Below, one piece after another: positions 5,110-28,100 of a stretch of DNA of 64,000 bases (its first letter is position 1; each line of letters opens with the position of its first letter). The stretch comes from Lentisphaerota bacterium (lineage in GTDB: Bacteria > Verrucomicrobiota > Kiritimatiellia > RFP12 > JAAYNR01), in contig VGWG01000005.1 in assembly GCA_016873675.1 (NCBI GenBank), positions 5,648 to 69,647 on the forward strand. Direction: 5' to 3'. The notes beneath the pieces were generated by a model. It saw only the letters and a list, made by a program, of their open reading frames with translations, was not told the DNA's origin and made no database searches. A program made the position numbers and the translations under genes.

Positions 5110-6396
5110 ATGTCACGTTTTACCATCCGGGGCGGACGCCGCATCACGGGCGCCCACGCCGTTTCCGGCAATAAAAATGCCGCGTTGCCGATGCTGGCCG
5201 CCGCCCTGCTCACGGATGAGCCGGTCACGCTCACCAATCTGCCCCTCATTCAGGATGTCCGCACCATGCTGGACCTCCTCGACGCCATGGGCGTTGCGGT
5301 CTCCCTCGACGAGGCCGCCCGCACGGTCACCCTGCATGCGCGGCGGATCCGTTCGACCACGCTCGACCGCGCACTGTGCGGCCGGGTCCGCTCCTCGATT
5401 CTCTTCGCGGGCCCGCTGCTCGCCCGCTGCGGCGCGGCGCGGATCTATCCGCCCGGCGGCGACGTGATCGGCCGCCGCCGTGTGGACACCCATCTCGACG
5501 GACTGCGCCAGCTCGGCGCCAGCGCCCGCGCCAACGGCTGCTATGCCTTCAAGGCTGCCAAGGGCCTCGCCGGCGCGCGCATCCTCCTCGATGAGTCCAG
5601 CGTCACCGCGACCGAAAACATCCTGATGGCCGCCGTCCGGGCACGGGGCCGAACCACGCTTTACAACGCCGCCTGCGAGCCGCACGTTCAGGACCTCTGC
5701 GCCCTGCTCAACACCATGGGCGCCGCCATCAGCGGCGCTGGCACCAACCTCCTCGTCATTGACGGCGTCGACCGCCTGCACGGCGTCACCCACGCCATCG
5801 GTTCCGACACCATCGAGGCTGGCAGCTACATCGCCGCCGCCCTCGCCACCGGCGGCGAGCTGACTCTCACCGGCATCTCAGCCTCCGACTTCGAGGTCCT
5901 CGAACGCCCCTTCCATCGCTTTGGCGCCCGCTGGACGATCACCGGCACGACGCTCCAGCTCCCCGGCGACCAGAAGCTCCGCACCACCTACGACCTCGGC
6001 GACGCCATCCCCAAAATCGAGGACGGCCCGTGGCCGGCCTTCCCCTCGGACCTGATGAGCGTCCTGATCGTCCTCGCCACCCAGACGCGGGGAACGACCC
6101 TGTTTTATGAGAAGATGTTTGAAAGCCGCATGTATTTCGTGGATCATCTCATCGGCATGGGCGCGCGCATCGTGCAGTGCGACCCCCACCGCGTCGTCGT
6201 GACCGGCCCGACGCGCCTGCAAGGGACGCGCGTCGTCTCCCCCGACATCCGCGCGGGGATGGCGCTCCTGATTGCGGCCCTCTGCGCCCGCAAGGAAACC
6301 GTGATCCTCAACGCTGAAAGCGTGGATCGCGGCTATGAACGGATCGACGCCACCCTGCGCAGCCTCGGTGCCGCCATTGAGCGCACGTCCGACTGA
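5110..6396 (+). CDS. murA: UDP-N-acetylglucosamine 1-carboxyvinyltransferase
   Basis: MSRFTIRGGRRITGAHAVSGNKNAALPMLAAALL...YFVDHLIGMGARI. MurA is full length (428 aa). The 777-aa ORF-track entry is an artefactual N-terminal extension that is antisense to ispH. Confidence 0.9.
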   Translation: MSRFTIRGGRRITGAHAVSGNKNAALPMLAAALLTDEPVTLTNLPLIQDVRTMLDLLDAMGVAVSLDEAARTVTLHARRIRSTTLDRALCGRVRSSILFAGPLLARCGAARIYPPGGDVIGRRRVDTHLDGLRQLGASARANGCYAFKAAKGLAGARILLDESSVTATENILMAAVRARGRTTLYNAACEPHVQDLCALLNTMGAAISGAGTNLLVIDGVDRLHGVTHAIGSDTIEAGSYIAAALATGGELTLTGISASDFEVLERPFHRFGARWTITGTTLQLPGDQKLRTTYDLGDAIPKIEDGPWPAFPSDLMSVLIVLATQTRGTTLFYEKMFESRMYFVDHLIGMGARIVQCDPHRVVVTGPTRLQGTRVVSPDIRAGMALLIAALCARKETVILNAESVDRGYERIDATLRSLGAAIERTSD

Positions 6397-12288: not shown

Positions 12289-12364
12289 GGCGGGTTAGCT
12301 CAGTTGGTAGAGCAACGGAATCATAATCCGTCTGTCGGGGGTTCAAGTCCCTCACCCGCCACCA
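12289..12364 (+). tRNA. tRNA-Met (anticodon CAT; could be tRNA-Ile2/lysidine type)
   Basis: GGCGGGTTAGCTCAGTTGGTAGAGCAACGGAATCATAATCCGTCTGTCGGGGGTTCAAGTCCCTCACCCGCCACCA. The 7-bp acceptor is GGCGGGT/ACCCGCC, the D-arm AGCTCAGTTGGTAGAGC, the anticodon stem ACGGA/TCCGT with loop ATCATAA, the T-arm GGGGGTTCAAGTCCCTC, and CCA is encoded. It is followed by a hairpin AAAACCCCGGCGTTGCTGGGGGTTTTT. Confidence 0.85.
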
Positions 12365-12640
12365 GCCAAAAAGCCCCACAAAACCCCGGCGTTGCTGGGG
12401 GTTTTTCATTTTACGCCCCGGTTTGCGGGCAAGCCCCGGTTGAGTGGCGTTCGTTCTTGTCCGATTCGTTTCTGACGTGGTATCCTTTCCGGTCTATGAC
12501 CGTGTCAGCATTCATTTCCAAGTGGCGTAAGGTGGAATTGAAGGAGCGCTCCGCCGTTTACGGCTGGTCCGCCGACCTCACCGACGATGCAATCCTCGAA
12601 CGGCTTATGCGTTGAATTCGGGGAATGCAAAAGGATGCCC

Positions 12641-14098
12641 ATGTTTGAACAAGCCTTCAAAAACATCGACGACGTCCTCTGGAAAGACGCTGGCTGCACC
12701 AGCGAACTCGATTACACCGAGCAGACCTCCTGGTTGCTCTTCCTGAAGTACCTCGACGCCCTGGAGACCGATCGCGCCACGGCGGCCGCCCTGAACGGCA
12801 AGACCTATACCCACATCCTCGACGCCCCCTTTCGCTGGGCCACGTGGGCCGCCCCCAAGGGCAAGGACGGCAGGATCGACCACAACACCGCCCTCTCCAG
12901 CGACGACCTCATCGCCTTCGTCAACGGCAAGCTCTTTCCCTACCTGCACGGCTTCAAGGCCAAGGCCACCGGCCCGAACACCATCGAATACAAGATCGGC
13001 GAAATCTTCGGCGAGATCAAGAACCGCATCCAGAGCGGCTACAACCTGCGCGAGATCATTGATCACATCGACGAACTCCGCTTCCAGTCCCAGACCGAGA
13101 AGCACGAGCTCTCGCACCTCTACGAAGCCAAGATCAAAAACATGGGCAACGCCGGGCGCAACGGCGGCGAGTATTACACCCCGCGCCCGCTCATCCGCGC
13201 CATCGTCGCCGTCACCGCGCCCCGGCTCGGTGAGACCCTCTGCGACCCCGCCGTCGGCTCGGCCGGCTTCCTCTGCGAATCCTTCGAGTACCTCCGTGTC
13301 CAGAACCCCCAGCGCACCACCGCCCAGGACCGCACCCTGCAAGAGCGCACCTTTTACGGGAAGGAAAAGAAGTCCCTCGCCTACGTCATCGCGATCATGA
13401 ACATGATCCTGCACGGCATCGAGGCGCCCAACATCATCCACACCAACACGCTCGCCGAGAACCTCGCCGACGTGCAGGAAAAGGACCGCTTCGACATCAT
13501 CCTCGCCAATCCGCCCTTCGGCGGCAAGGAGCGCAAGGAGGTGCAGCAGAACTTCCCCATCCGCACCGGCGAGACCGCCTTCCTCTTCCTCCAGCACTTC
13601 ATCAAATTCCTCAAGGCCGGCGGCCGCGCCGGCGTCGTCATCAAGAACACCTTCCTCTCCAACACCGACAACGCCTCCGTCAGCCTGCGCCGGAAGCTGC
13701 TGGAGGAGTGCGACCTCCACACCGTGCTCGACTGCCCCGGCGGCACGTTCATCGGCGCCGGCGTCAAGACCGTGGTCCTCTTCTTCCAGAAGGGCGCCAA
13801 GACGCGCAAGGTCTGGTTCTACCAGCTCGACCCCGGCCGCAACATGGGCAAGACCAACCCGCTCAACGACGCCGACCTCGCCGAGTTCGTCGCGCTCCAG
13901 AAGACCAAGGCCGACTCGCCCAAGAGCTGGAGCGTGGACGCGGCGGCCATCGATCCGCAGACCTTTGACCTCTCCGTCAAGAACCCCAACGCTGGCGAGG
14001 CGGTCGCCCACCGCACCCCGCAGGAGATCATGGACGAAATCGCCGCGCTGGATGCCGAGAGCGCCGAGGTGCTGGCCAACATCCGAGGGCTGCTATGA
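12641..14098 (+). CDS. hsdM: Type I restriction-modification N6-adenine DNA methyltransferase subunit
   Basis: MFEQAFKNIDDVLWKDAGCTSELDYTEQTSWLLFLKYLD is the HsdM N-domain. Motif I is DPAVGSAGFL and motif IV is NPPFGG. Alternative in-frame starts are 12635 and 12587. The stop overlaps the next gene. Confidence 0.9.
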   Translation: MFEQAFKNIDDVLWKDAGCTSELDYTEQTSWLLFLKYLDALETDRATAAALNGKTYTHILDAPFRWATWAAPKGKDGRIDHNTALSSDDLIAFVNGKLFPYLHGFKAKATGPNTIEYKIGEIFGEIKNRIQSGYNLREIIDHIDELRFQSQTEKHELSHLYEAKIKNMGNAGRNGGEYYTPRPLIRAIVAVTAPRLGETLCDPAVGSAGFLCESFEYLRVQNPQRTTAQDRTLQERTFYGKEKKSLAYVIAIMNMILHGIEAPNIIHTNTLAENLADVQEKDRFDIILANPPFGGKERKEVQQNFPIRTGETAFLFLQHFIKFLKAGGRAGVVIKNTFLSNTDNASVSLRRKLLEECDLHTVLDCPGGTFIGAGVKTVVLFFQKGAKTRKVWFYQLDPGRNMGKTNPLNDADLAEFVALQKTKADSPKSWSVDAAAIDPQTFDLSVKNPNAGEAVAHRTPQEIMDEIAALDAESAEVLANIRGLL

Positions 14099-15162
14099 GC
14101 GAACTGCCGGCCAGGGACTACGGCGACTTTCTGGTTGCAGTCAAGACCCGCATCCGGCAGGCGCAATACCAAGCGTTGCGGGCGACGAACAAGGAGCTTC
14201 TGACGCTCTACTGGGACCTGGGCGAGTCCATCCACCGCAAGCAGGATGCGCTGGGATGGGGCCGATCCGTGGTTGAGACGCTTGCCAGCGACCTCCAGGC
14301 TGAGTTCCCGGGGCGGAACGGTTTCTCAGCCCGCAACCTCTGGAACATGAGGGACTTCTACACCGAATATTCCGCCAGGCCAAAACTGCAACCGCTGGTT
14401 GCAGAAATCAGTTGGGCTAAAAACCTGGTCATCATGGCCCGTTGCAAGGATGACTTGGAGAGGGAGTTCTACCTCCGCGCCACCGCGCGCTTCGGCTGGA
14501 CCAAGGCCGTGCTCCAGCACCAGATCGACAACAAGAGCTACGAGAAATACCTGCTCAACCAGACCAACTTCGACGCGACCCTGCCCGCCGAGATCAAGGC
14601 GCAGGCGGCGCTGGCGGTCAAGGACCACTACACCTTCGATTTTCTCGACCTGGCCGAGGAGCACTCCGAGCGCGAACTGGAGCGGTCCCTGGTCAACAAC
14701 ATCCGCCGATTCCTCGCCGAAATGGGCGGTGCCTTCACCTTTGTCGGCAACCAGCACCGCCTGGAGGTGGGCGGACAGGAATACTTCATCGACCTCCTGC
14801 TGTTCCACCGCCGCCTCCGCTGCCTGGTGGCGATCGAGCTGAAGATCGGCAGTTTCGAGCCGGAGCACAAGGGCAAGATGGAGTTCTACCTGGAGGCGCT
14901 CGACGCGCAGGAGCGCATCGACGGCGAAAACCCGCCCGTCGGCATCATCATCTGCCGCGACAAAAACAAGACCGTGGTCGAATACGCCCTGCGCACCGCG
15001 GGCCGCCCCATCGGCGTCGCCACCTACACCGTCGTCCCCCAACTGCCCGCAACCTACCGCGACCAGCTCCCCAGTCCCGAAGCCATCGCCGAACGCCTCC
15101 GCCTGTGGGCCGCCGAGAGCGCCCGACAAGCCGCCGCTGACCAGGCGGAGGGGGCGGGATGA
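14095..15162 (+). CDS. PDDEXK-nuclease-fold protein YhcG/DUF1016, embedded in the type I R-M operon
   Basis: A 355-aa protein with ...YWDLG..I...W..NLVIMARCKD..EREFYL...GWTKAVLQHQI...FDFLDL...ELE..L...FLAEMGGAFTFVGNQHRLEVGGQEYFIDLLLFHRRLRCLVAIELKIG, the DUF1016 pattern. Its location between hsdM and hsdS is classic. Confidence 0.75.
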   Translation: MSELPARDYGDFLVAVKTRIRQAQYQALRATNKELLTLYWDLGESIHRKQDALGWGRSVVETLASDLQAEFPGRNGFSARNLWNMRDFYTEYSARPKLQPLVAEISWAKNLVIMARCKDDLEREFYLRATARFGWTKAVLQHQIDNKSYEKYLLNQTNFDATLPAEIKAQAALAVKDHYTFDFLDLAEEHSERELERSLVNNIRRFLAEMGGAFTFVGNQHRLEVGGQEYFIDLLLFHRRLRCLVAIELKIGSFEPEHKGKMEFYLEALDAQERIDGENPPVGIIICRDKNKTVVEYALRTAGRPIGVATYTVVPQLPATYRDQLPSPEAIAERLRLWAAESARQAAADQAEGAG

Positions 15163-16322
15163 AGAAGGGGTGGCAGACAAAGACGCTGGGGGACGTCTGC
15201 GCTTTCGACAAAGCGCAAGGCATCCACCGGGGTTTGCCTTACGTCGGGCTTGAACACATCGAGTCTCACACAGCGCGTTTTATCGGCTCAAGCGAGCCGC
15301 AGCCTGTCAAAAGCTCGACGTTTCGATTTTCCGACGAGCACGTTCTCTACGGGCGGCTTCGACCTTATCTGAACAAGGCACTCGCGCCGGATTTCGAGGG
15401 CCATTGCTCAACGGAAATCTTCCCACTGAAGCCGCGCCCTGAACTCTCGCGGGAATATCTGCTGTTTTGGCTGCTGGCTGATGAGACGTGTGACCGCATC
15501 AACGAGACTTGCACGGGCGCACGAATGCCACGCGCTCAGATGAACGACGTGCTCGGCTTTGAGATTCCCGTCCCCCCCCTCCCCGAACAGCGGCGGATCG
15601 TCGGCCTGCTCGACGAAGCGTTTGCGGGCCTCGCCACCGCCAAAGCCAACGCCGAAAAGAACCTCCAGAACGCCCGCGCCCTCTTCGAAAGCCACCTCCA
15701 ATCCGTCTTCGCTGACCAATGGCATGTTGGTAAGTTGGTTACACTCTCGGAGTTGGCCACTGACATCACGGACGGCGACCATCTGCCACCGCCGAAGTCT
15801 CCAACCGGTGTACCATTCATCACCATAGGAAACATCGTGAAGGAGACCCGCGAGATTGATTTTAGCGACACCTTCATGGTGCCTCGCGCTTACTTTGACG
15901 CTCTTAAAACCTACAAGAAGCCTCGGCGGGGAGACGTTCTTTATACCGTCACCGGTTCATTCGGAATCCCCGTCATTGTCCGTGATGACGCCGAATTTTG
16001 CTTCCAGCGGCACATTGGCCTTGTTCGTCCGAAGCCCGAGATAAGCAGTTCCTGGCTCTACTATCTCCTCATGTCTCCACAGTTGCTCAAACAGGCAAAT
16101 GAAGGTGCCACGGGCACGGCACAAAAGACTGTTTCATTAAAACTCCTCCGCAGTTTCATGGTGCCCAAGGTTGCGCCGAACCAACAGAGGCAAGCTGTGG
16201 GAAAACTTGACGCCCTCAATGCCGAAACCCGCCACCTCGCCGCCATCTACTCCCGCAAGCTCGCGGTGCTGGAGGCGTTGAAGAAGTCGCTGCTGCACCA
16301 AGCCTTCACCGGAGAACTCTGA
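15159..16322 (+). CDS. hsdS: Type I R-M specificity subunit (two target-recognition domains)
   Basis: The conserved central repeat is LPPLPEQRRIVGLLDEAFAGL and the C-terminal repeat is LRSFMVPKVAPNQQRQAVGKLDAL...LKKSLLHQAFTGEL, separated by two variable TRDs. It is translationally coupled on both sides. Confidence 0.85.
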   Translation: MKKGWQTKTLGDVCAFDKAQGIHRGLPYVGLEHIESHTARFIGSSEPQPVKSSTFRFSDEHVLYGRLRPYLNKALAPDFEGHCSTEIFPLKPRPELSREYLLFWLLADETCDRINETCTGARMPRAQMNDVLGFEIPVPPLPEQRRIVGLLDEAFAGLATAKANAEKNLQNARALFESHLQSVFADQWHVGKLVTLSELATDITDGDHLPPPKSPTGVPFITIGNIVKETREIDFSDTFMVPRAYFDALKTYKKPRRGDVLYTVTGSFGIPVIVRDDAEFCFQRHIGLVRPKPEISSSWLYYLLMSPQLLKQANEGATGTAQKTVSLKLLRSFMVPKVAPNQQRQAVGKLDALNAETRHLAAIYSRKLAVLEALKKSLLHQAFTGEL

Positions 16323-16324
16323 CC

Positions 16325-16999
16325 ATGCCCAATGCCCCAATCACAGAACGCACTTCCAATCCTGCCGAAATCACCACGGTCGGCATCGATGTGGGCGGCG
16401 AACGCAAGGGTTTTCACGCCATCGCGATTACCAACGGAGATTATTCGAGCCACCTTGCCACAAAGGACGTGCAGGAACTTTCCTGCTGGTGTCGTGATAC
16501 GGTGCGAGCACAAGTCATCGCTGTGGATGCACCGTGCGGCTGGAGCATCGACGGACATTCACGCCCCGCCGAGCGCGAGCTAATGCAAAAGAGCATCTGG
16601 TGTTTCTCAACGCCGACGCGAGAGAAGGCAGTCGGGCATCCCACCAATTACTTCGGCTGGATGCTGCGGGGCGAGGCGTTGTTTCGTGCGCTCGAAAATG
16701 ACTTCCCCCTTTGTCGCAAACTGCCCGCAACAAACCGGAAGTGCTGCTTCGAGACTTTCCCGCACGCCATCACCTGGCATCTGCGGGGTGGCAATGCCGA
16801 TGCTCGGCGTAAGCGTGAACAACGCCGGGCCTTGCTGACGCAGGCGAGAATCGACATCACCGGGTTGACAAACATCGACCTCGTTGATGCCGCGCTCTGC
16901 GCCCTCACGGCTAACCGCGCCGCCACGGGCGGTGCGTGCGTGAGTTTCGGTGAGCAGAACACCGGATTGATCATCGTACCCACCCAACCCAACCTATGA
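16325..16999 (+). CDS. DUF429-like predicted RNase-H-fold nuclease, embedded in the R-M operon
   Basis: A 224-aa protein with VGIDVGGERKGFHAIAI...VIAVDAPCGW...DLVDAALCALTA. Size and motif spacing match DUF429 as I recall it. It starts 3 nt after the hsdS stop. Confidence 0.5.
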   Translation: MPNAPITERTSNPAEITTVGIDVGGERKGFHAIAITNGDYSSHLATKDVQELSCWCRDTVRAQVIAVDAPCGWSIDGHSRPAERELMQKSIWCFSTPTREKAVGHPTNYFGWMLRGEALFRALENDFPLCRKLPATNRKCCFETFPHAITWHLRGGNADARRKREQRRALLTQARIDITGLTNIDLVDAALCALTANRAATGGACVSFGEQNTGLIIVPTQPNL

Positions 17000-17106
17000 A
17001 CACCACCGAACCCCAGCGCCTCACCGCCATCTGCACCCGAAAGCGCGCCACGCTGGGGCAGTTGAAGAAGTCGGTGCTGCACCAAGCCTTCACCGGAGAA
17101 CTTTAG
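16996..17106 (+). pseudogene. Orphan 3' fragment of a second hsdS allele (36 codons)
   Basis: It encodes MNTTEPQRLTAICTRKRATLGQLKKSVLHQAFTGEL. The hsdS C-terminus at 16250-16322 reads ...LAAIYSRKLAVLEALKKSLLHQAFTGEL. The final ~43 nt are near-identical (gaagaagtcgGtgctgcaccaagccttcaccggagaactTtag versus ...tcgCtg...actCtga). Confidence 0.65.
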
Positions 17107-17116
17107 GAGACGCCCC

Positions 17117-18157
17117 ATGAGCAGGGAAAAGAAACTCCAGATTCGTAACAGCACCGCCGAGTTCCTGATCTTCACCCGGCAGGCGGGCGAGGACGGCATC
17201 GAGGTGCGCGTCGAAGACGAGACCGTCTGGCTGACGCAGAAGCTGATGGCGGCGCTGTTCGAGGTGACCGTTCCGACCATCAGCGAGCATCTGGCCAACC
17301 TATATGCCCAAGGTGAAATCTCCGAACCGGCAACTCTTCGGAATTTCCGAACAGTTCAAAAGGAGGGTGCCCGCGATGTCGCCCGGAATATGGATTTCTA
17401 CAACCTCGACGCCATCATCGCCGTAGGCTTCCGGGTGAACTCCGTCCGCGCCATCCAGTTCCGGCAATGGGCCACAGGCGTCTTGCGGGATTTCGCGATC
17501 CGCGGCTACGTGCTGGACAAGGAGCGGCTGAAGAACGGGGCGTTCCTGAGCAAGGAGTATTACGAAAACCTGCTGGCGGAGATTCGCGAGATCCGGGCGA
17601 GCGAGCGGAAGTTCTACCAAAAGATCACCGACATCTACGCCACGGCGATGGATTACAGCCCGGAGGCGGAGACGACCCAGACATTTTTCGCCACAGTGCA
17701 GAACAAGCTGCATTTCGCCATCCATGGCCGTACCGCCGCCGAACTGATTGTGGAACGGGCGGACAGCAAAAAGGAGCGCATGGGCCTGACGACCTGGAAG
17801 AACGCGCCGCACGGGAAGATCCTCAAGCCGGACGTCGTGGTGGCAAAGAACTACCTCACCGAAAAGGAACTGAAGTCACTGGATCGGATCGTGACGATGT
17901 ATCTGGATTACGCGGAAGATCAAGCCGAGCGCGGCATCCCAATGACCATGCGGGACTGGGCGACCAAGCTGAACGCGTTCCTCCAGTTCAACGAACGGGA
18001 CATTCTCGATCATCCGGGGAAGGTGAGCCAGGCGGTGGCCAAGGCCTTTGCCGAAAGCGAGTTCGAGAAGTACCGGATCGTACAGGATCGCCTGTTTGAG
18101 TCGGACTTCGACCGGCATATCAGGAAGGCTTTGGAAGGCGGCAAGGAAGAATCATGA
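17117..18157 (+). CDS. rhuM: RhuM-family protein (R-M/island-associated DNA-binding protein)
   Basis: ETVWLTQKLMAALFEV, FYNLDAIIAVGFRVNS, RASERKFYQKITDIYATAMDYS and IVTMYLDYAEDQAERG closely follow the RhuM consensus. RBS AGGAGA is present. Confidence 0.8.
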   Translation: MSREKKLQIRNSTAEFLIFTRQAGEDGIEVRVEDETVWLTQKLMAALFEVTVPTISEHLANLYAQGEISEPATLRNFRTVQKEGARDVARNMDFYNLDAIIAVGFRVNSVRAIQFRQWATGVLRDFAIRGYVLDKERLKNGAFLSKEYYENLLAEIREIRASERKFYQKITDIYATAMDYSPEAETTQTFFATVQNKLHFAIHGRTAAELIVERADSKKERMGLTTWKNAPHGKILKPDVVVAKNYLTEKELKSLDRIVTMYLDYAEDQAERGIPMTMRDWATKLNAFLQFNERDILDHPGKVSQAVAKAFAESEFEKYRIVQDRLFESDFDRHIRKALEGGKEES

Positions 18158-20646
18158 ACGAAGCCGAAACCAGAGCCGAGCACATCGACCCCGCACTTGC
18201 CGCGGCGGGTTGGGGCGTCGTTGAGGGGAGCCGCATCCGGCGCGAGTACCCGATCGCGCCGGGCCGCATCGAGGGGCTCGGCCGGCGCGGCAAGCCGCTC
18301 ATCGCCGACTACATCCTGGAGTACCGCAACCGCAAGCTGGCCGTGGACGAGGCCAAGGCATGGGATGTTGAGTTGACCGAGGGGGTGGCGCAGGCCAAGA
18401 ACTACGCCGGCAAGCTCGCCGTCCGTTTCGCCTACGCCACCAACGGCCGTGGCATCTACGCCGTGGACATGCAGACCGGCAGGGAAGGCGAGATCGCCCG
18501 CTATCCGACCCCCGACGAACTCTGGGCCATGACCTTCGCCGGGGAGAACGCTTGGCGGGACCGGTTCACGGCCGTGCCGTTCGAGGACAAGGGCGGCTCG
18601 CACCCGACCCGGTACTATCAGGACACCGCCATCGAGCGGGTGATGGATGCCATCGCGGCGAACCAGCCGCGCATCCTGCTCACGCTCGCCACGGGCACGG
18701 GCAAGACCTTCATCGCCTTCCAGATCGCCTGGAAGCTCTTCCACTCCCGCTGGAACCTCTCCCGCGAGCCTTCCCGCCGGCCGCGCATCCTGTTCCTCGC
18801 CGACCGGAACATCCTGGCGAACCAGGCCTACAACGCCTTCTCCGCCTTCCCCGAGGATGCGCTGGTGCGGATCGAGCCGGACGACATCCGCAGGAAGGGC
18901 AAGGCGCCGAAGAACGGCAGCCTGTTCTTCACCATCTTCCAGACCTTCATGACCTCCGGCGCCCAGGCGTCCGATGAAGTCAATACGGTCAACGCGGTCA
19001 AACCCGCCGTCGCCCCGCCGCCGATCTATCCGCTGGCGGAGGACGAGGTCGCCCCCTTGGACATGGCGGCGGAACCGCCCGCGCTCTTCGGCGAATACCC
19101 GCCGGACTTCTTCGACTTCATCGTCATTGACGAGTGCTACCGCGGCGGCGCGAACGACGAGAGCGCCTGGCGCGGCATCCTCGAATACTTCGCCCCGGCG
19201 GTGCAGATGGGGATGACCGCCACGCCCAAACGCGAGGAGAACGTGGACACCTACCGCTACTTCGGCGACCCGGTCTACATCTACTCCCTCAAGGACGGCA
19301 TCAACGACGGCTTCCTGACGCCATTCAAGGTGAGGCAAATCCAGACCACGCTTGACGAGTACGTCTACACGCCCGATGATTGCGTTTTGGAAGGAAGCAT
19401 CGAAGAGGGCAAGCTTTACGACGAGGAAGACTTCAATCGCATCATCGAGATCAAGGAACGGGAGAAGAAGCGGGTTGAAATCTTCATGGCGCTGATTGAC
19501 CAAAAGGAAAAGACCCTCGTCTTTTGTGCGAGTCAAATTCACGCGTTGGCCGTCCGCGACCTGATCAACCAGATGAAGACCAGCGCCGACCCGAACTACT
19601 GCCAGCGGGTGACGGCGAACGACGGCGCGCTCGGCGAGCAGCACCTGCGCGACTTCCAGGACAACGAGAAGACGATCCCGACGGTCTTGACCACGTCGCA
19701 GAAGCTTTCGACCGGCGTGGACGCCCGCAACGTCCGCAACATCGTCCTGATGCGGCCCATCAGGCGGATCATCGAGTTCAAGCAGATCATCGGGCGCGGC
19801 ACGCGGCTTTACGACGGCAAGGACTACTTCACGATCTACGACTTTGTGAAGGCGTGCCAGCATTTCAGCGATCCCGAGTGGGACGGCGAGCCGCTCGAAC
19901 CGGAGCCCTGCCCGAAGTGCGGCTGCCAGCCGTGCGCGTGCGTAAAGCCGCCGCCGCAAGCGTGCCCCGTCTGCGGCCAGGCGCCCTGCGTCTGCCCGCC
20001 GGGTCCCTGCCCGAGATGCGGCCAGCGGCCATGCGTATGCAAAAAGCGGGAAAGGGTGAAGGTAAAACTGGCGGACGGCAAGGAGCGCACCATCCAGCAC
20101 ATGATGATGACCAGCTTCTGGCACCCCGACGGCACGCCCATGTCCGCGCAGCAGTTCATGGAACTGCTCTTCGGCAAGCTCCCGGACTTCTTCAAAGACG
20201 AAGCCGAACTCCGCGCCATCTGGAGCGCTCCCGACACGCGCAAGAAGCTCTTGCAAGGGCTGGCCGAGAAAGGTTTTGGCCACGACCAACTATCCGAAAT
20301 GCAGAAGATCATCGACGCCGAAAAGAGCGACCTGTTCGATGTGCTGGCCCATGTGGCCTACGCCTTGCCGCCGGTCACCCGCGAAGTGCGGGCCGCGAAC
20401 GCCAAAGTCCACATCAACGCCCAGTTCAATGCCAAGCAGCAACTCTTCCTTGATTTTGTGCTCCAGCACTACATCACGGTCGGCGTGGAAGAACTGGACC
20501 AGGAAAAACTCACGCCGCTGCTCCTCCTCAAATACCACAACTCCCTCGCGGATGCCGTCGCTGACCTCGGCGGCCGGCCCGAAGAAATCAACAAAACCTT
20601 CGCCGGTTTCCAGAAGTATCTTTATCAACAAACGGCTGCGGCGTGA
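18154..20646 (+). CDS. hsdR: Type I restriction endonuclease R subunit (EcoEI-like C-terminal domain) with a Cys-rich insertion
   Basis: N-terminal HSDR_N (ETRAEHIDPALAAAGW...IADYILEY), helicase motifs (LATGTGKT, DEC, MTATP, TGVD, QIIGRGTR) and a C-terminal EcoEI_R_C-like region. Between them sits 3x CPxCGQxPCxC (CPKCGCQPCACV / CPVCGQAPCVCP / CPRCGQRPCVCK), encoded by a ~45-nt tandem repeat at 19905-20040. The start overlaps the rhuM stop. Confidence 0.85.
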   Translation: MNEAETRAEHIDPALAAAGWGVVEGSRIRREYPIAPGRIEGLGRRGKPLIADYILEYRNRKLAVDEAKAWDVELTEGVAQAKNYAGKLAVRFAYATNGRGIYAVDMQTGREGEIARYPTPDELWAMTFAGENAWRDRFTAVPFEDKGGSHPTRYYQDTAIERVMDAIAANQPRILLTLATGTGKTFIAFQIAWKLFHSRWNLSREPSRRPRILFLADRNILANQAYNAFSAFPEDALVRIEPDDIRRKGKAPKNGSLFFTIFQTFMTSGAQASDEVNTVNAVKPAVAPPPIYPLAEDEVAPLDMAAEPPALFGEYPPDFFDFIVIDECYRGGANDESAWRGILEYFAPAVQMGMTATPKREENVDTYRYFGDPVYIYSLKDGINDGFLTPFKVRQIQTTLDEYVYTPDDCVLEGSIEEGKLYDEEDFNRIIEIKEREKKRVEIFMALIDQKEKTLVFCASQIHALAVRDLINQMKTSADPNYCQRVTANDGALGEQHLRDFQDNEKTIPTVLTTSQKLSTGVDARNVRNIVLMRPIRRIIEFKQIIGRGTRLYDGKDYFTIYDFVKACQHFSDPEWDGEPLEPEPCPKCGCQPCACVKPPPQACPVCGQAPCVCPPGPCPRCGQRPCVCKKRERVKVKLADGKERTIQHMMMTSFWHPDGTPMSAQQFMELLFGKLPDFFKDEAELRAIWSAPDTRKKLLQGLAEKGFGHDQLSEMQKIIDAEKSDLFDVLAHVAYALPPVTREVRAANAKVHINAQFNAKQQLFLDFVLQHYITVGVEELDQEKLTPLLLLKYHNSLADAVADLGGRPEEINKTFAGFQKYLYQQTAAA

Positions 20647-20989: not shown

Positions 20990-22042
20990 ATGACGCCCAT
21001 GACCATAGACATCGACAAGCGATCCACGGTGCTCATGCTGTTGACACTGCTCCTTCCCGCACTGACACGTGGCGCGGGCTCGGACATCTCGGCAGGCACC
21101 TTCGGCGTGTACATGGAGAACGACATGTATGCCGGCACGGACCACTACTACACCAGTGGTTCCAAGCTCACGTGGAGTTCTCCCAATCTCGAAACGCTCA
21201 GCGACTCCCCGTATGCCAGCCCGTTCCTGCCGATGTTTGATCGGTTGCCCTACATCAACGCAAGCGACTATCAAAAGAACCTCGTTTTCGCACTTGGGCA
21301 GAACATCTACACGCCCGACGACACCGAGTCGTCTGGGCTGCTCGGCGATGATCGCCCCTACGCGGGCTGGCTTTACATGGGGCTCGGCATCGTGTGGAAA
21401 GATGCGCGGGTGAGAAACTCGCTCGTGCTGAGTATCGGCGTCGTCGGCCCATGGGCCTACGCGCATGAAACCCAGCGCCTGATCCATGATGCGCTTGATC
21501 AAGATCATCCGAATGGATGGGAGAATCAACTACACAATGAACTCGGTGTGAACCTCGCGTACGAACGGATTTGGCGTCTTCCCAAGCTCACGAAACGCAG
21601 CGGGCTTGACTGGGAGCTCCTGCCCCATGGAGGCGCGGTGGTAGGAAACGTCTATACCTATGTCAACCTCGGCGCCGAACTGCGCGCTGGCTTGAATCTG
21701 CCCGATGATTTCGGAACCGGAGTGATCGGTCCGGTGGCCACCACCTCGACGCCCGTCGATGGCATGATGGGCGCAGATCGTTCCCGCTTTGATCTGGGGA
21801 TGTATGTCTTCGCCCGAGCCGATGGCCGCGCGGTGGGACGCAACATTTTGCTGGATGGAAACACCTTTGGGAGTGGCCCATCCGTGGGGCATAATCCCTT
21901 CGTCGCTGATCTCAGCCTCGGCGTGGCCCTGAACATTAAGAATACCAAGATCGCCTACGCCTCTGTCTATCGGACCCGTGAGTTCGACAGCCAGCAGGAC
22001 GCCCAAATCTTCAACATGGTCTCACTCAACTGGACCTTCTAA
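20990..22042 (+). CDS. lpxR: LpxR-family outer-membrane lipid A 3'-O-deacylase (DUF2219)
   Basis: Signal peptide, then GVYMENDMYAGTDHYYTSG (LpxR starts ENDxxxxxDxxYTxG), an OMP beta-barrel with C-terminal ...SLNWTF. Confidence 0.6.
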   Translation: MTPMTIDIDKRSTVLMLLTLLLPALTRGAGSDISAGTFGVYMENDMYAGTDHYYTSGSKLTWSSPNLETLSDSPYASPFLPMFDRLPYINASDYQKNLVFALGQNIYTPDDTESSGLLGDDRPYAGWLYMGLGIVWKDARVRNSLVLSIGVVGPWAYAHETQRLIHDALDQDHPNGWENQLHNELGVNLAYERIWRLPKLTKRSGLDWELLPHGGAVVGNVYTYVNLGAELRAGLNLPDDFGTGVIGPVATTSTPVDGMMGADRSRFDLGMYVFARADGRAVGRNILLDGNTFGSGPSVGHNPFVADLSLGVALNIKNTKIAYASVYRTREFDSQQDAQIFNMVSLNWTF

Positions 22043-22150: not shown

Positions 22151-25100
22151 TCAGCAGACGCTGACTGCGACGGCGTGCTCGCGGCGGTCGTCAACCAGCG
22201 GGACGATGCCATCAGCTTGTTCCAGGCCGTCGAGCACCACCCGGAACGGCCGCGCGAGGGCCGCTGCGGACCGCGTAACATGAATATGGTAAAACGTGTC
22301 GCGGTAGCGGTAGTGCAGCTTCAGCGCTGTCCAGGCGCGCGGCAGTTGCGGATTGAGCCGCAATTGCTCGGCTTCAAGCCGCACGCCAAGCAGGGTCTCG
22401 ACGAGCAGCCGGTACATCCAACCGGCCGCGCCCGTGTACCAGGTCCAACCGCCGCGCCCGACATGGGGCACGGCGCCGTAAACATCGGCGGCCATGACAT
22501 AGGGTTCGACCTTGTAACACTCCACCCCGGCCGCGTTGGCCGTATGCCGGATCGGGTTGAGCCGCGAGAACAATTCCCAGGCGCGCTCGGTTTCGCCAAG
22601 CTGCGCGAACGCCATGACGGCCCAGATGGCGCCGTGGGTGTACTGGCCGCCGTTTTCGCGCACACCGGGCGGGTAGCTCTTGATGTAACCGGGCTCCATC
22701 GCCGATGTCTCGAAGGGCGGATCGAGGAGCCGGATCAGCCGGTCGTCGTGCCGGACCAGACGCTGATAGACGTGCTCCATAGCCTGACGCGCCCGCGCCG
22801 GCTCCGCCGCGCCGGACAGCACCGCCCAGCTCTGGGCGAGGGAGTCAATCTGGCACTCCTCGTTGGCAGCCGAACCGAGCGGGGTGCCGTCATCGAAGGT
22901 CGCACGCCGATACCATTCGCCATCCCACCCGTGTGCTTCGATGTTCCGCTGCAAGCGCGCCGCTTGCTCGCGGCAACGGTCGGCCAACACCGTATCGTGG
23001 CGGCGGCGGGCGAGTTCCTCGAACCGCTGCAACACGTGGTAAAGAAAGAACGCCAGCCACACGCTTTCACCCCGACCGTGCGCTCCGACCAGATTCATGC
23101 CGTCGTTCCAGTCGCCGCTGCCGATCAATGGCAGTCCATGTTCACCAAAACGCAGGCCATATTCGATCGCCAGCACGCAATGCTCGTAGAGCGTTCCGGA
23201 TTTTCCAGAAAGGCGCGGCAGATCATAGTACGATTCCTCATCGGCGTTTACCGGGCGGCCGTCGAGATACGGCGCACGCTCGTCGAGAACGCCGGTGTCG
23301 CCAGTCATCGTCACGTAGCGACAGGTGGCGTAGGGCAACCAGAGGTAATCGTCGGAGCAGTGCGTGCGCACGCCGCGTCCGCTGGGCGGATGCCACCAGT
23401 GTTGCACGTCGCCTTCGCTGAACTGGCGACTGGCGCACCGCAACAGATGCTCGCGGGCGATCCATGGCGCGGCGTGCAGCAGCGCCATCGTGTCTTGGAG
23501 CTGATCGCGAAACCCGTACGCCCCGCCGGACTGGTAATAGCCGCTCCGCCCCCAATAGCGCGCGGCCAAAACCTGATACTCCAGCCACCCATTGACCAGC
23601 AGGTTCAGGGCCGGGTCGGGCGTCTCGGCGTACACGACGCCCAAGGTGCGCTTCCAGAACTCCCAGACGCTCTCCAGAGCGAGCCGCGCGCCAGCCGGAT
23701 CGCCGAAGCGCCGGATGAGCTGGTGCGCCTCTTCGACATCATTCCCGGCCCCGAGCGTAAAGACCAGTTCGTGTTCCTCGCCATCGGCCAACGCGATACC
23801 CGCTTGCATCGCCGCGCAGGGATCGAGCCCCGCGCCCGTGCGACCCGAAAGACGCGCCCGGCGCATCGCCGCCGGACTGGCCATCATGCCGTTGCGCCCC
23901 AGAAATTCCGCGCGGCTTCCGGTGACGGTCCGCGCGGCGTCGCTGACGTTGACGAAAACGGTTTTGTCGGCAAACTCGCGATTGTACACGGTGCGCGCGA
24001 AGAGCGCGCCCGTGGCCGGGTCCAGGGAGGTGACCACGTGCATCAGGTTCGTGTGGCGCCACTGACCCAAGACCAGCTCCCAGTAGCCGGTGACCGACAA
24101 CCGCCGGGTTCGGCCCGAGCGATTGCGGAGCTTGATCGTCACCACTTTCACGGGTGCATCTTGCGCCACATAGGTCCAGAGTTCCGACTCGATGCCCAAC
24201 TGCGCGTACTCGAACACGCTGTACCCAAACCCGTGACGGCAGACATAGGTTCCGCTTCCCCGCGCGGGCAAAGGCGTGGGCGACCAGAACTGGCCGGTTT
24301 CTTCGTCCCGAATGTAGAAAGCCTCGCCGCTCAGATCTCCCACCGGATCGTTGTGCCAGGGTGTCAGCCGGAATTCATGGGCGTTGTCCACCCAGGTATA
24401 GGCCCCGCCACTTTCGCTGACCACCGAACCGATGCGGGCGTTGGCGAGCACATTGGACCAGGGCGCGGGGGTGGCCCGACCCGGCGCGAGCGAGATCACG
24501 TATTCCCTGCCGTCGGGTGTAAACCCCCCCAGCCCGTTGAAGAAGATACGTTCACGCGGCGGCAGCGCAGACGCGGCGGCCGTCAAGGGGGAGCGGCTCG
24601 GCGTGAAGCGAGGCATTACCCGCTCCAGCGGGGCCTGCCGCTCGACTTGCCCGGTGAGCGTCTCCGCGCTGTCGGTGATGATCACCCGCGCAACCGTTTG
24701 CAGCAGAATCCGCTGCTCCTCCGACAACTGTTCGCTGCGCCGCGGGAAGATGCCGCCTGGCTTATCCACCCGGTGCGCCTCCGTACCTGCGGCAATCAAG
24801 CTCAAAACCTGTTCCTGAAGCACCTGACGATATCCGGAAAAGTCCTCGTTCAAGATAATCAGATCGGTCTTCAAGCCTTTCTCGCGCCAATAGGCGTGGG
24901 CCTTGAGCACCTCCCGCACCCGCTCGATCCGATGCACGTCGGCGATGCGCAGCAGCACGATCGGCAGATCGCCTGAAATGCCAAAGGCCCACAAGCCGGG
25001 CTGCCCGAGCCGATTGCGAACCAGGAGGCCGGCGTCGGCGCGGAGGCGCGGGTTCGCAAACAGCACCGCGCCCGCGAGCTCGACATAGACCTGCGCCTCG

Positions 25101-28100
25101 GCTTCGGTCGCCTGCAACTGGCGCAACACGAGTTGGCTGTGGGACCAGGCCATTTCGAACGCGCGCGCGGCGAAACTGGAATCGCGGTACTTATCGATCA
25201 GTACCAGCGCGGCCGCGCGCGTGTCGGCCATGCCGGAAATGATGTGCCACGTGGCAACGGTGTCGGCGGCGATGACCATGCCGCATCGGATGGCGACGAT
25301 CGGATCGAGCGTCGCGCCCTCCGTGCCCGACAGCGGCCCGGGGGCGTCAAACGCCGCTGGCGCGTCCACCGTGCGATTCCGTCCGATAAACCGCGCCCGG
25401 TCCGTCTCGTAGGAGGCGTCGCCGGCCAGCGCGCCCTGGGTGGTCATCAGGTGGAACATCCACGGCGGCTCCTCGCCCGGCGCACGCGGTCGGCGCATAC
25501 AGAGAATGGCCTGCGTGTCGCGGAGAATCTCCGTGCGCACGAACAAATTGCTGAAGGCCGGGTGCGCGAGATCCGCGTCCGGGGGCGCAAGCACGATCTC
25601 TGCGTAACTCGTCAGTTCGATGGTGCGAAGGCGGGATGAAAAATTCGTGAGTGTCACACGGCGGACTTCAACGTCATCCTCGGGTGACACGGCGATTTCC
25701 GTGTGCGCTTCAATCTCTTCGTCGCGCCGGCGATACTCGGCGCGCCCCTGCAGAAAAATCGCCTCGCCGTATTTCGCTGCGCGCCGCGTCGGTTGGTAAG
25801 CCGTTGACCACAGCACGCCCGTGACGGTGTCGCGCACATAGCAGAACAGGCCCCATCCGTCGCGAGTGGCGTCCTCGCGCCAGCGCGTGACCGCCAGATT
25901 TTTCCAGCGGCTGTACCCGCCGCCCGTGTGGGTGACCATCACGTGATAGCGTCCATTGGACAGCAGATGCACATGCGGCAGCGGCGTGTCCGGCGAGGGG
26001 AAGACGCGCATGAGGGCGGCGGCCGCCTCCGGCGGCTGGCGCGCGGCGCTCACCTCGGCCGCGTGGGGATGCAAGGGGGAGGCGATCTTAGGGATACGCT
26101 CGTGCAACAGCAATTCCGCCGCCTTGAAAGCCGGGTCGGAAAGAAACCGGCGCTGCATCGGCCGGTCCAGCAGCAGGTGCGTCAGCGCCAGCAGGCTCAT
26201 CCCCTGGTGATGCGCCATGTAACTGCGCAACAGGACCCCCTCCTTGCCCTGCGGCATGCGCGCGGGCGAGAAATCAATCGCTTCATACAATCCGTGAGCG
26301 CCGCCGTATCCTTTCTCCACCAGCGTCTGAAGATTTCGGCAGGCCTCGCGGGGCATGACCATCAACGCCAGTGCCGAGGCGTACGGCGCGACAACCAGAT
26401 TCTCCGCCAGGCCGCGCTTGAACCCCAGTCCCGGCACGCCGAAAGCCCCATACTGGTAGACCCCCTGCGCGTCGGTGGCGTTGTAGCACGATTCGGAAAT
26501 CCCCCACGGCACACCGCGCTGGCGTCCGTATTCAATCTGCCGGGCCACGACCGCCCGGTAGGATTGATCGAGCAACGTGTGCTCGTACGTCGGCATCACG
26601 AGCAGGGGCATCAGGTACTCGAACATCGAACCGCTCCACGACAACAAAGCCATCGCGCCGACGTGGGTGGTCACCTGTCGGCCCAGGGCAAACCAATGCT
26701 CCTGCGGCAGCCGATCCTGGGCGATGAGCATGAAACTGGCCAAACGCGCCTCCGAGGCGAGCAGGTCGTAATACGCCGGATCGCGGCGCCGCTCGCTGAC
26801 GTTGTAGCCAATCACCAGCAAAGCGCGGGCGGGATCGTAGAGAAAAGCGAAGTCCATCTCCGCCTGCGCGGCACAACTCCGGGCGAGCCGATCAATCCGA
26901 CGGAGGCGCTCGGCGGCGCGTGGTCCACCGGCGGCCTCGCCGGCCAAATCCTGCAGCGTCGGAATGCCTTCGAACGGGCGGGTATCGGGCACGAGCAACA
27001 GCAAATCGTCGCGCACAGCCCGGCACTGCCGCGCGAATGCGTGCCGCCACGCCTGCCGGTTCGCATCACCGTCGGCGGGCAGCGTCTCGATCTCACGGCC
27101 GAGTTCCTGAAGCAGCGTCATCGTGGCGGACAGGGTCGCCGGCGGGGTCGCATTCAGTTTCGTCCGCAGGGACGCGAGGGGCGGGGCACCCGCCCTGTCC
27201 AGCGTGTCCCGCAGTCCAGAGAGCAGCCGGGGCGAGACGACGGGCTGCGTTTTCAACTCCAGCAGACCGCTGCGCAAGACGGCCAACGCCCCGGCGAGGT
27301 TACCGCTGTCCACGCTCGACACATAAAGCGGCCGAAGCGGCACCAGCGTGCGCGTGTCGTACCAGTTGTAGAAATGGCCATGGTAGCGTTCGAGACGCTC
27401 CATAGCGCCAAGGGTCTGTTCCGTGCGTTCGAGCAATTCACCGGTGGAGAGGTAACCAAAATCCCACGCCGACAGATTGGCCAGCAAGGCCATGCCGATA
27501 TTGGTCGGCGAGGTTCGTGAGGCGACGAGGCGCGTCGGGGTTTCCTGAAGATTGTCAGGCGGCAGCCAGTTTTCCTGAGCGTTGACGAGCGTTTCGAAGT
27601 AGCTCCAGGTTTGGCGGGCCAGCCCGTGCAGGAACACGTGTTGAGCCTCGGAGAGGACCGGTTGGGGGGTCGTCAGCGGCCGGCTGATCCACCAGCCGAC
27701 GGCGGGCGCGATGAGCCACAGCAGCAGCAGCGGCCCGCTGAAGAGCAACTCGGCGGGATGCGCCAGCGCCAGCCACACGCCGGCGATCGCTCCGAACAGC
27801 GGCGCGACCCACATCTCCGAGAAGAAGTCAGCCGGCGTCTTGCAGCCGTTGCGCCGCGCATAGCGCGGCGTGTGCCAGAGCAACAGGCCTCGCCGCGTGA
27901 ACGCCATGCGACCGGCGGAAACAAGGATCGCGTCCAGATGGACCACGGCCCGATACGGCAGGCTGCAAAGCGCAAGCGCGGCCTCAGCCCCCTGTCGGCC
28001 AATCGCTCCGAAGATGGCGTTACGATGGACGGCCCACGTCCGTTCGCGGGGTTTTTGAAGCGCTTCAACCAACACGGTGACGCCCACGGGCAGCAGCAGC

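Follow-up and report, generated by a model that had tools for sequence, protein, structure and literature searches.

A conserved CPxCGxxPCxC unit, present three times in the interdomain linker of a type IB HsdR restriction subunit, as a putative metal-binding bead

The hsdR gene analysed here is encoded in a 64,000-nucleotide stretch of contig VGWG01000005.1 from a Lentisphaerota bacterium (assembly GCA_016873675.1, forward strand, positions 5,648 to 69,647; hereafter, the window). In the linker that joins RecA-like domain 2 to the C-terminal EcoEI_R_C domain, its product carries three units of the form C-P-x-C-G-x-x-P-C-x-C (aa 586-629, nt 19909-20040; the sequences of the units and of the two spacers between them are given in Table 1). 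These 44 residues contain 13 of the 18 cysteines of the protein (binomial P about 1e-18 at the Cys frequency of the remaining residues). The units are conserved in position and sequence among close homologues, are gained and lost as whole modules over longer evolutionary distances, and recur in proteins unrelated to HsdR. We lean, with modest confidence, towards the interpretation that each unit binds a single metal ion, with Zn2+ the likeliest, and forms a compact bead in the interdomain tether. A Cys-rich, zinc-knuckle-like repeat in hsdR had been noticed previously from the sequence alone (hereafter, the original prediction), and both the translation and the Pfam positions agree in placing it in the linker that connects Helicase_C to EcoEI_R_C.

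The protein that carries the units is a typical type IB (EcoAI/EcoEI) HsdR: it scores 779 bits against the NCBIfam model NF046051 (cut-off 550; aa 1-825 covered), has the layout of this family (an N-terminal nuclease region, a superfamily 2 motor of two RecA-like domains and a C-terminal EcoEI_R_C domain), contains the Pfam domains ResIII (aa 151-360), Helicase_C (aa 442-551) and EcoEI_R_C (aa 666-824), and is encoded together with hsdM and hsdS partners. The closest solved structure is the Vibrio vulnificus HsdR fragment 3h1t (PDB sequence search, 1.7e-126), the alignment to which stops at residue 580, 6 residues ahead of the first Cys unit. On the N-terminal side, the linker is anchored by the end of RecA-like domain 2, where D573, D577 and G578 are nearly invariant (alignment A1). 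On the C-terminal side, it runs into a basic stretch and a strand (aa 635-638, assigned by DSSP on the AlphaFold2 (AF2) model), and since the KVKLADGK motif is conserved also in homologues without units, the basic stretch belongs to the C-terminal region. Spacer 1 (7 aa) is Pro-rich in nearly all three-unit homologues, and the commonest forms of spacer 2 (4 aa) are PPEP and PKEP.

We gathered 412 units with a fixed-Cys pattern, in which the Cys positions are set by the pattern itself, and obtained the consensus C-P-[KV]-C-G-[QCK]-x-P-C-[VEI]-C. G5 (400/412) and P8 (389/412) are near-invariant, P2 is found in 319/412 units, and positions 3, 6, 7 and 10 are variable, with Lys/Arg recurrent at positions 3, 6 and 7, and Glu frequent at position 10 as well as in the spacers. 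All 12 core cysteines are invariant in an alignment of 56 sequences chosen for having at least two units. The Cys codons of the units are TGC in 658 cases and TGT in 226, and this switching indicates that the DNA diverged while the Cys residue was kept. The first five residues of the units correspond to CPXCG, which has been published as the consensus for zinc knuckle turns (PMC4999995), and the remaining two cysteines come four residues later, as P-C-x-C.

Among the 120 closest homologue clusters at 90% identity (77-100% identical to the HsdR of the window, with at least 7 phyla named), three units are present in 119, and the one exception (P0069) has a Pro-rich linker in their place. A scan of one genome per species, with the C-terminal 281 residues of HsdR as the query, identified close relatives in at least 557 species genomes. 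The best 76 parsed loci comprise 69 with three units, 3 with two, 2 with four and 1 with none, whereas the remaining locus (L027) was mis-parsed. The 69 species genomes with three units span many phyla, and the locus without units (L046) is an intact open reading frame (ORF) of 799 aa with a Pro-rich linker. The original prediction had treated the Cys-rich repeats as unfamiliar in HsdR subunits; comparison with other HsdR proteins shows that the linker segment is routinely present in homologues and is thus a feature of a subfamily. Sequencing errors, which had been named as another possible source of the repeat, are an unlikely one, given that the identical protein is recorded on 3 contigs (P0001; Lentisphaerae metagenome-assembled genome) and that hundreds of homologues have the segment.

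Each of the three units has its own signature. Across 125 three-unit homologues, unit 1 is marked by the conserved K3 and C6 and unit 2 by V3 (104/125), and the Q6-R7-V10 signature of unit 3 is the most conserved of the three. Units with the same index in different proteins are 72-80% alike, compared with 68% for different units of one protein, which implies that the triplication predates the spread of the subfamily. By these comparisons, the three units are old and fixed in a large HsdR subfamily.

The original prediction described the segment as a tandem 45-nt repeat. The three-unit protein motif stands, but the DNA repeat does not: the unit starts are spaced 54 and 45 nt, the ungapped DNA identity between units is 71-73%, and Tandem Repeats Finder reported no array at the unit site (minimum score 30; 19500-20500 searched). 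Because of the uneven spacing, the low DNA identity and the failure to detect an array, we conclude that the repeat is one of protein motifs and not a recent DNA duplication. A direct-repeat search did recover similarity spaced by 45 nt and 99 nt in the unit region, and copy number differs among distant homologues, as might be expected if the segment were a recent in-frame expansion, a hypervariable contingency tract or an assembly artefact devoid of function. Given the position-specific signatures conserved across phyla, the low similarity between the units at the DNA level, the prevalence of three signature-bearing units in the 120 clusters and 76 genomes, and the identical protein on the 3 contigs, we see practically no chance that this explanation is correct. 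The identity of a tandem DNA repeat or contingency locus was rejected on the same grounds. Likewise, the proposal of a copy-number-variable region was not borne out, the copy number changing from 0 to 5 only across deep evolutionary distances.

Over those distances, the linker changes in kind. Among 65 full-length sequences, each representing a 50%-identity cluster, units are absent from 57, and the others carry two (4 sequences), three (3 sequences) or five (1 sequence); counts of one, four and five units were also seen in HsdR fragments. The spacers between units range from 1 aa in P0131, where the units abut, to 24 aa of Gly/Pro-rich sequence (P0143, P0144 and P0150). Among intact genes with 72-80% identity, single whole units are replaced by non-Cys sequence in L019 and L052, and whole units are added in L031 and L060. 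An EcoAI-family HsdR of Escherichia coli (L002), which belongs to the same family (NF046051), has at the same linker position an acidic stretch of about 70 aa without Cys, the HsdR on plasmid pAQ3 of Picosynechococcus (PCC 7002) has a charged linker, and a Shewanella HsdR has a Pro-rich one; conversely, three-unit linkers are found in E. coli ET82 and in an HsdR on a Methylomagnum plasmid. Thus, the type IB HsdR linker is hypervariable, in that it can be acidic, Pro-rich or built of 1-5 Cys units, and the units are interchangeable with disordered linkers at the same site. The units are not essential, because intact close homologues lack them.

Of the 5,426 complete E. coli genomes, 955 yielded a blastn match, but only in ET82 did the match cover the greater part of the gene (76% of the query). 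This three-unit HsdR (L001, NZ_CP101005.1, 1257372-1259798) offers a convenient experimental handle in a standard host. The gene lies in an island with a DUF262 gene, adjoining IS1 and a recombinase.

The gain and loss of whole units, together with the variable spacers, implies that every set of four cysteines is self-sufficient and does not belong to a joint cluster. This bears on the alternative under which the segment is a metallothionein-like polynuclear cluster, with 12-13 cysteines jointly binding 3-4 metal ions via bridging thiolates. Cys makes up about 30% of the segment, in CxC and CxxC motifs, and the only PDB match to the segment is the cyanobacterial metallothionein SmtA (1jjd), at a non-significant E of 6.3. 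However, a joint cluster needs a fixed ligand set, whereas homologues have 1-5 copies separated by 1-24 aa, including long Gly-rich spacers, and lose or gain whole units. We therefore consider such a cluster very unlikely and reject the identification of the segment as a metallothionein.

In the known folds that contain it (zinc ribbons, treble clefs and rubredoxin-type sites), the CPXCG turn contributes two cysteines to the tetrahedral coordination of Zn (PMC4999995). The HsdR unit shares the five residues of this turn, but in those folds a second knuckle or a helix, at a distance of 10-30 residues and within a domain of at least 25 residues, supplies the other pair of ligands, whereas in the HsdR unit this pair would be supplied by the P-C-x-C four residues downstream, within a self-contained unit of 11 residues. 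The retroviral-type CCHC knuckle (C-x2-C-x4-H-x4-C) also forms tiny, often tandem beads, and it binds single-stranded nucleic acids. The HsdR unit resembles it in size, in the tandem arrangement and in the C-x2-C-x4 spacing to the third ligand, but this third ligand is Cys instead of His and the fourth is at +2 instead of +5. The identity of a zf-CCHC knuckle is ruled out by the C-x2-C-x4-C-x-C pattern and by the finding that the segment has no zf-CCHC match in Pfam at E ≤ 10. Binding of an Fe-S cluster was set aside because the spacing is unlike the CxxCxxCxxxCP of ferredoxins and the CxC pair is better suited to a mononuclear site. The unit would thus work like a zinc knuckle while lying outside every family tested, as a minimal Cys4 knuckle employed as a linker bead.

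In the bead interpretation that we favor, the four cysteines of each unit would wrap one metal ion, the CPxCG knuckle forming one part of the site and the PCxC half-site the other, and the three beads with their short Pro-rich spacers would take the place of an otherwise disordered tether that links RecA-like domain 2 with the helical C-terminal domain. Through this tethered domain, HsdR would dock on the M2S methyltransferase core, which has been proposed as the contact of the HsdR C-terminal helical region (PMC2777439). The beads would shorten, stiffen and protect the tether, making it compact, semi-rigid and probably protease-resistant; they would have no catalytic role, and evolution would exchange them for Pro-rich or acidic linkers. 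The Lys/Arg residues at positions 3, 6 and 7 may compensate the charge of the Zn(Cys)4 center (net 2-). Of the proposals made in the original prediction, a metal-binding module is accordingly the most plausible: the invariance of the 12 core cysteines in the selected alignment and the match to CPXCG both point to it. The motif, its position, its conservation, the gain and loss of units and their recurrence in other proteins were observed directly, whereas metal binding, the kind of metal and the mechanical or protective role of the beads are inferred.

Several observations weigh against the bead interpretation. Linker length is not conserved among homologues (about 36 to about 80 aa), which makes a role as a precise 'ruler' unlikely; the loss of units in some lineages would also fit a regulatory add-on; and the Lys/Arg residues at positions 3, 6 and 7 could instead reflect contact with nucleic acids. 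The segment matches no Pfam family at E ≤ 10 other than a chance match to Zn_ribbon_ISL3 (0.069), and a PDB sequence search with the segment returned only the non-significant SmtA match. Structure prediction weighs on both sides. AF2 models, built without metal, predict the motor and the helical C-terminal domain with confidence (full-length mean predicted local distance difference test score (pLDDT) 83, predicted template modelling score 0.73; EcoEI_R_C domain helical, pLDDT 75-92), and the full-length model superimposes on 3h1t with a Foldseek TM-score of 0.85 (normalised to 3h1t), but the confidence in the unit region is only moderate and DSSP assigned no regular structure there. In the full-length model, the unit region is coil with pLDDT 55-67, compared with about 28 for a disordered insertion elsewhere in the protein; when aa 566-665 are modelled alone, the unit blocks reach pLDDT 68-79 and the flanks 52-60. 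A Foldseek search with this 100-residue model gave 0 PDB hits, and a search with the full-length model found helicase cores only, namely, 3h1t, RadD and EcoR124I HsdR. The structure prediction that the original prediction had called for would thus fit small, ordered beads strung along a flexible chain, without being proof of them.

RadD, the closest non-HsdR relative of the helicase core (NCBIfam 1.7e-18; PDB 6jde/7r7j), suggests another role for the units, namely, that they are zinc modules contacting nucleic acid, which help the motor to grip or guide DNA during translocation. RadD has a related superfamily 2 core with two tandem Zn(Cys)4 sites (C384-C425 and C434-C451) straight after RecA-like domain 2 and ahead of the C-terminal domain (PDB 7r7j), that is, at the same topological position as the HsdR units, and one of these sites is required in vivo, the C437A mutant being non-functional (PMC9049331). 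The frequent Lys/Arg at unit positions 3, 6 and 7 and the basic stretch after unit 3 would also suit DNA contact. Nevertheless, the RadD sites are conventional zinc ribbons, with beta-hairpins, long ligand spacing (CxxC...CxxC over 15-40 residues) and no sequence similarity to the HsdR units. RadD conserves its ribbons and requires them; the HsdR units, in contrast, are dispensable short elements that differ in number between proteins and can be swapped for disordered linkers. With all four cysteines of a unit within 11 residues, instead of two CxxC knuckles on beta-hairpins 10-40 residues apart, the identity of a RadD-type zinc ribbon is ruled out. Furthermore, among intact close homologues, P0069 and L046 are devoid of units and others have an acidic linker in this position, Glu is frequent in the spacers and at position 10, the basic stretch is kept where the units are absent and so is part of the C-terminal region, and the units of viral proteins (see below) are embedded in strongly acidic tracts. 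On balance, we regard DNA contact as a fairly unlikely function.

A further alternative is that the units are a redox- or zinc-sensitive switch, the unfolding of which alters the coupling between motor and methyltransferase and lowers restriction under stress. In Hsp33, a Zn(Cys)4 center of a CxC and a CxxC is established as a redox switch, and the HsdR units place twelve thiolates in an exposed linker of 44 residues. Restriction by type IA/IB enzymes is, moreover, alleviated post-translationally after DNA damage, but the known route is via ClpXP acting on translocating HsdR (PMC3874165), and Cys units are missing from the one EcoAI-family HsdR of E. coli that was examined (L002). Nothing ties the unit-bearing HsdR proteins to redox control, and the units are found across organisms of very different lifestyles. 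We consider a switch of this kind improbable.

The unit is not confined to HsdR. A search with a synthetic query of eight units retrieved, in addition to HsdR fragments, a second cellular family (P0279 and P0285-P0287), one member of which is encoded in a frameshifted Hma locus (L099, 5710-8615) where the upstream pieces match the PADLOC models of HmaC/DUF499 (2.3e-50) and of the HmaB/DUF1156 methylase (4.8e-71). The assignment to HmaC rests on this single frameshifted locus because the contexts of P0286 (a remnant adjoining a transposase) and P0279 (a contig edge) are uninformative. A homologue search seeded with P0286 returned mostly fragments, with no full-length DUF499 protein among the relatives. 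Of the 66 HmaC/DUF499-like C-terminal relatives, 16 carry 3-4 units (the sequences noted for this feature are P0279, P0285-P0287, P0292-P0300, P0312, P0316, P0317, P0332 and the L099 locus), and these units are located between the motif D-L-D-x-G-F-L-M-V-P and the strand V-R-T-S-I-R-I, whereas most of the other relatives that show this linker have Pro/Gly/Thr-rich sequence. HmaC/DUF499, a component of the candidate defence system Hma, thus resembles HsdR in carrying CPxCGxxPCxC units with Pro-rich spacers in an interdomain linker, although it belongs to an unrelated protein family and was found mostly as fragments. Judged from these linkers, the alternation between Cys4 beads and disordered sequence has arisen in two unrelated defence ATPases.

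In addition, 12 viral contigs were matched by a DNA pattern for two nearby units. One of these (L095) encodes an HsdR, and the proteins of the other 11, which are unrelated to HsdR, carry 2-4 units, most of them embedded in acidic sequence of low complexity (L087, L088, L090, L091, L093, L094 and L097). Six of the 11 proteins were scanned against Pfam, with no significant domain found. Two of the viral unit proteins are about 1000 aa long and are encoded on contigs of 175-231 kb. At the other extreme, the proteins of L089, L092, L096 and L098 form a family of 49-51 aa with little beyond two units, which follows the pattern CPACGCDPCDCGWG...C-x-R-C-G-S-x-D-C-W-C and mostly ends in HWGDQ (CWGDQ in L098).

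The unit is widespread, conserved and unannotated, and is probably a structural accessory. Mentions of Cys or zinc in HsdR are absent from the type I enzyme reviews and from the 3h1t paper, and we found no paper with any of six notations of the motif or with a description of the segment, an absence that is no proof of its being undescribed. Zinc binding by the units would mean that numerous type I restriction subunits of broad distribution have three unannotated metal sites each, and that a very small, self-contained metal unit has been used repeatedly in place of disordered linkers in defence ATPases and viral proteins. This would bear on how the methyltransferase core and the HsdR motor are tethered to each other, in a region of type IB enzymes that lacks a solved structure, on annotation, a profile of the unit being missing from Pfam, and on the design of short metal-stapled linkers. 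A bolder proposal, to which we give a small but not negligible chance, is that the unit represents an undescribed, autonomous Zn(Cys)4 fold of minimal size, disseminated as a linker cassette among type IB HsdR, HmaC and viral-contig proteins, and that a zinc- or redox-responsive HsdR tether tunes restriction to the physiology of the cell.

Table 1. Coordinates of the type I genes and of the linker elements of HsdR (positions in the window)
Feature	Position (nt)	Strand	Basis or remark
hsdM, same type I operon	12587..14098	+	Pfam N6_Mtase and HsdM_N
hsdS, same type I operon	15159..16322	+	Pfam Methylase_S, two stretches
hsdR, type IB (EcoAI/FtnUII family) restriction subunit, 830 aa	18154..20646	+	NCBIfam, Pfam, PDB match
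End of RecA-like domain 2, DPEWDGEP, aa 573-580, N-terminal linker anchor	19870..19893	+	Last stretch aligned to 3h1t
Cys4 unit 1, CPKCGCQPCAC, aa 586-596, extra non-essential Cys at position 6	19909..19941	+	
Pro-rich spacer 1, VKPPPQA, aa 597-603	19942..19962	+	
Cys4 unit 2, CPVCGQAPCVC, aa 604-614	19963..19995	+	
Pro-rich spacer 2, PPGP, aa 615-618	19996..20007	+	
Cys4 unit 3, CPRCGQRPCVC, aa 619-629	20008..20040	+	
Basic stretch and first beta-strand of the C-terminal region, KKRERVKVKLA, aa 630-640, C-terminal linker anchor	20041..20073	+	
EcoEI_R_C helical C-terminal domain, aa 666-824, tethered by the linker	20149..20625	+	Pfam PF08463, 2.6e-32

Outside the linker, two further features of the HsdR sequence were observed. 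Helicase motif II reads DECY (19129-19140, aa 326-329). Of the 224 relatives in which the motif could be recognised, 218 show DECH and 4 show DEAH, and DECY is seen only in the HsdR of the window. DECY corresponds to a single C-to-T change (His to Tyr), which could be a sequencing error or could impair ATPase coupling in this copy. The second feature is another hypervariable, low-complexity insertion, inside RecA-like domain 1 (18952-19098, about aa 267-315), which is 49 aa long here and 12-58 aa long in close homologues, is absent from 3h1t, and is disordered at aa 269-308 (AF2 pLDDT about 28). Most of the length variation among close homologues (787-867 aa) stems from this insertion.

The type I locus (12587-20646) has a GC content of 0.56-0.66, compared with 0.69-0.72 in the upstream sequence, and a tRNA-Met gene (anticodon CAT, 12289-12364) is located immediately upstream of hsdM; together, the tRNA gene and the lower GC content suggest that the locus is a horizontally acquired island. 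Three accessory genes, all phage-defence candidates, are interleaved in the hsdM-hsdS-hsdR operon (14095-15162, 16325-16999 and 17117-18157), encoding a DUF1016/YhcG PD-(D/E)xK nuclease (PADLOC PDC-S02), a DUF429 protein (PDC-S44) and RhuM (PDC-S05). Beyond hsdR, the window contains a gene for an LpxR outer-membrane lipid A deacylase (20990-22042; Pfam) and, on the opposite strand, an ORF of 2839 aa (22151-30670), in which GT2, glucoamylase-like and GH94 domains are combined as in a cyclic beta-1,2-glucan synthase.

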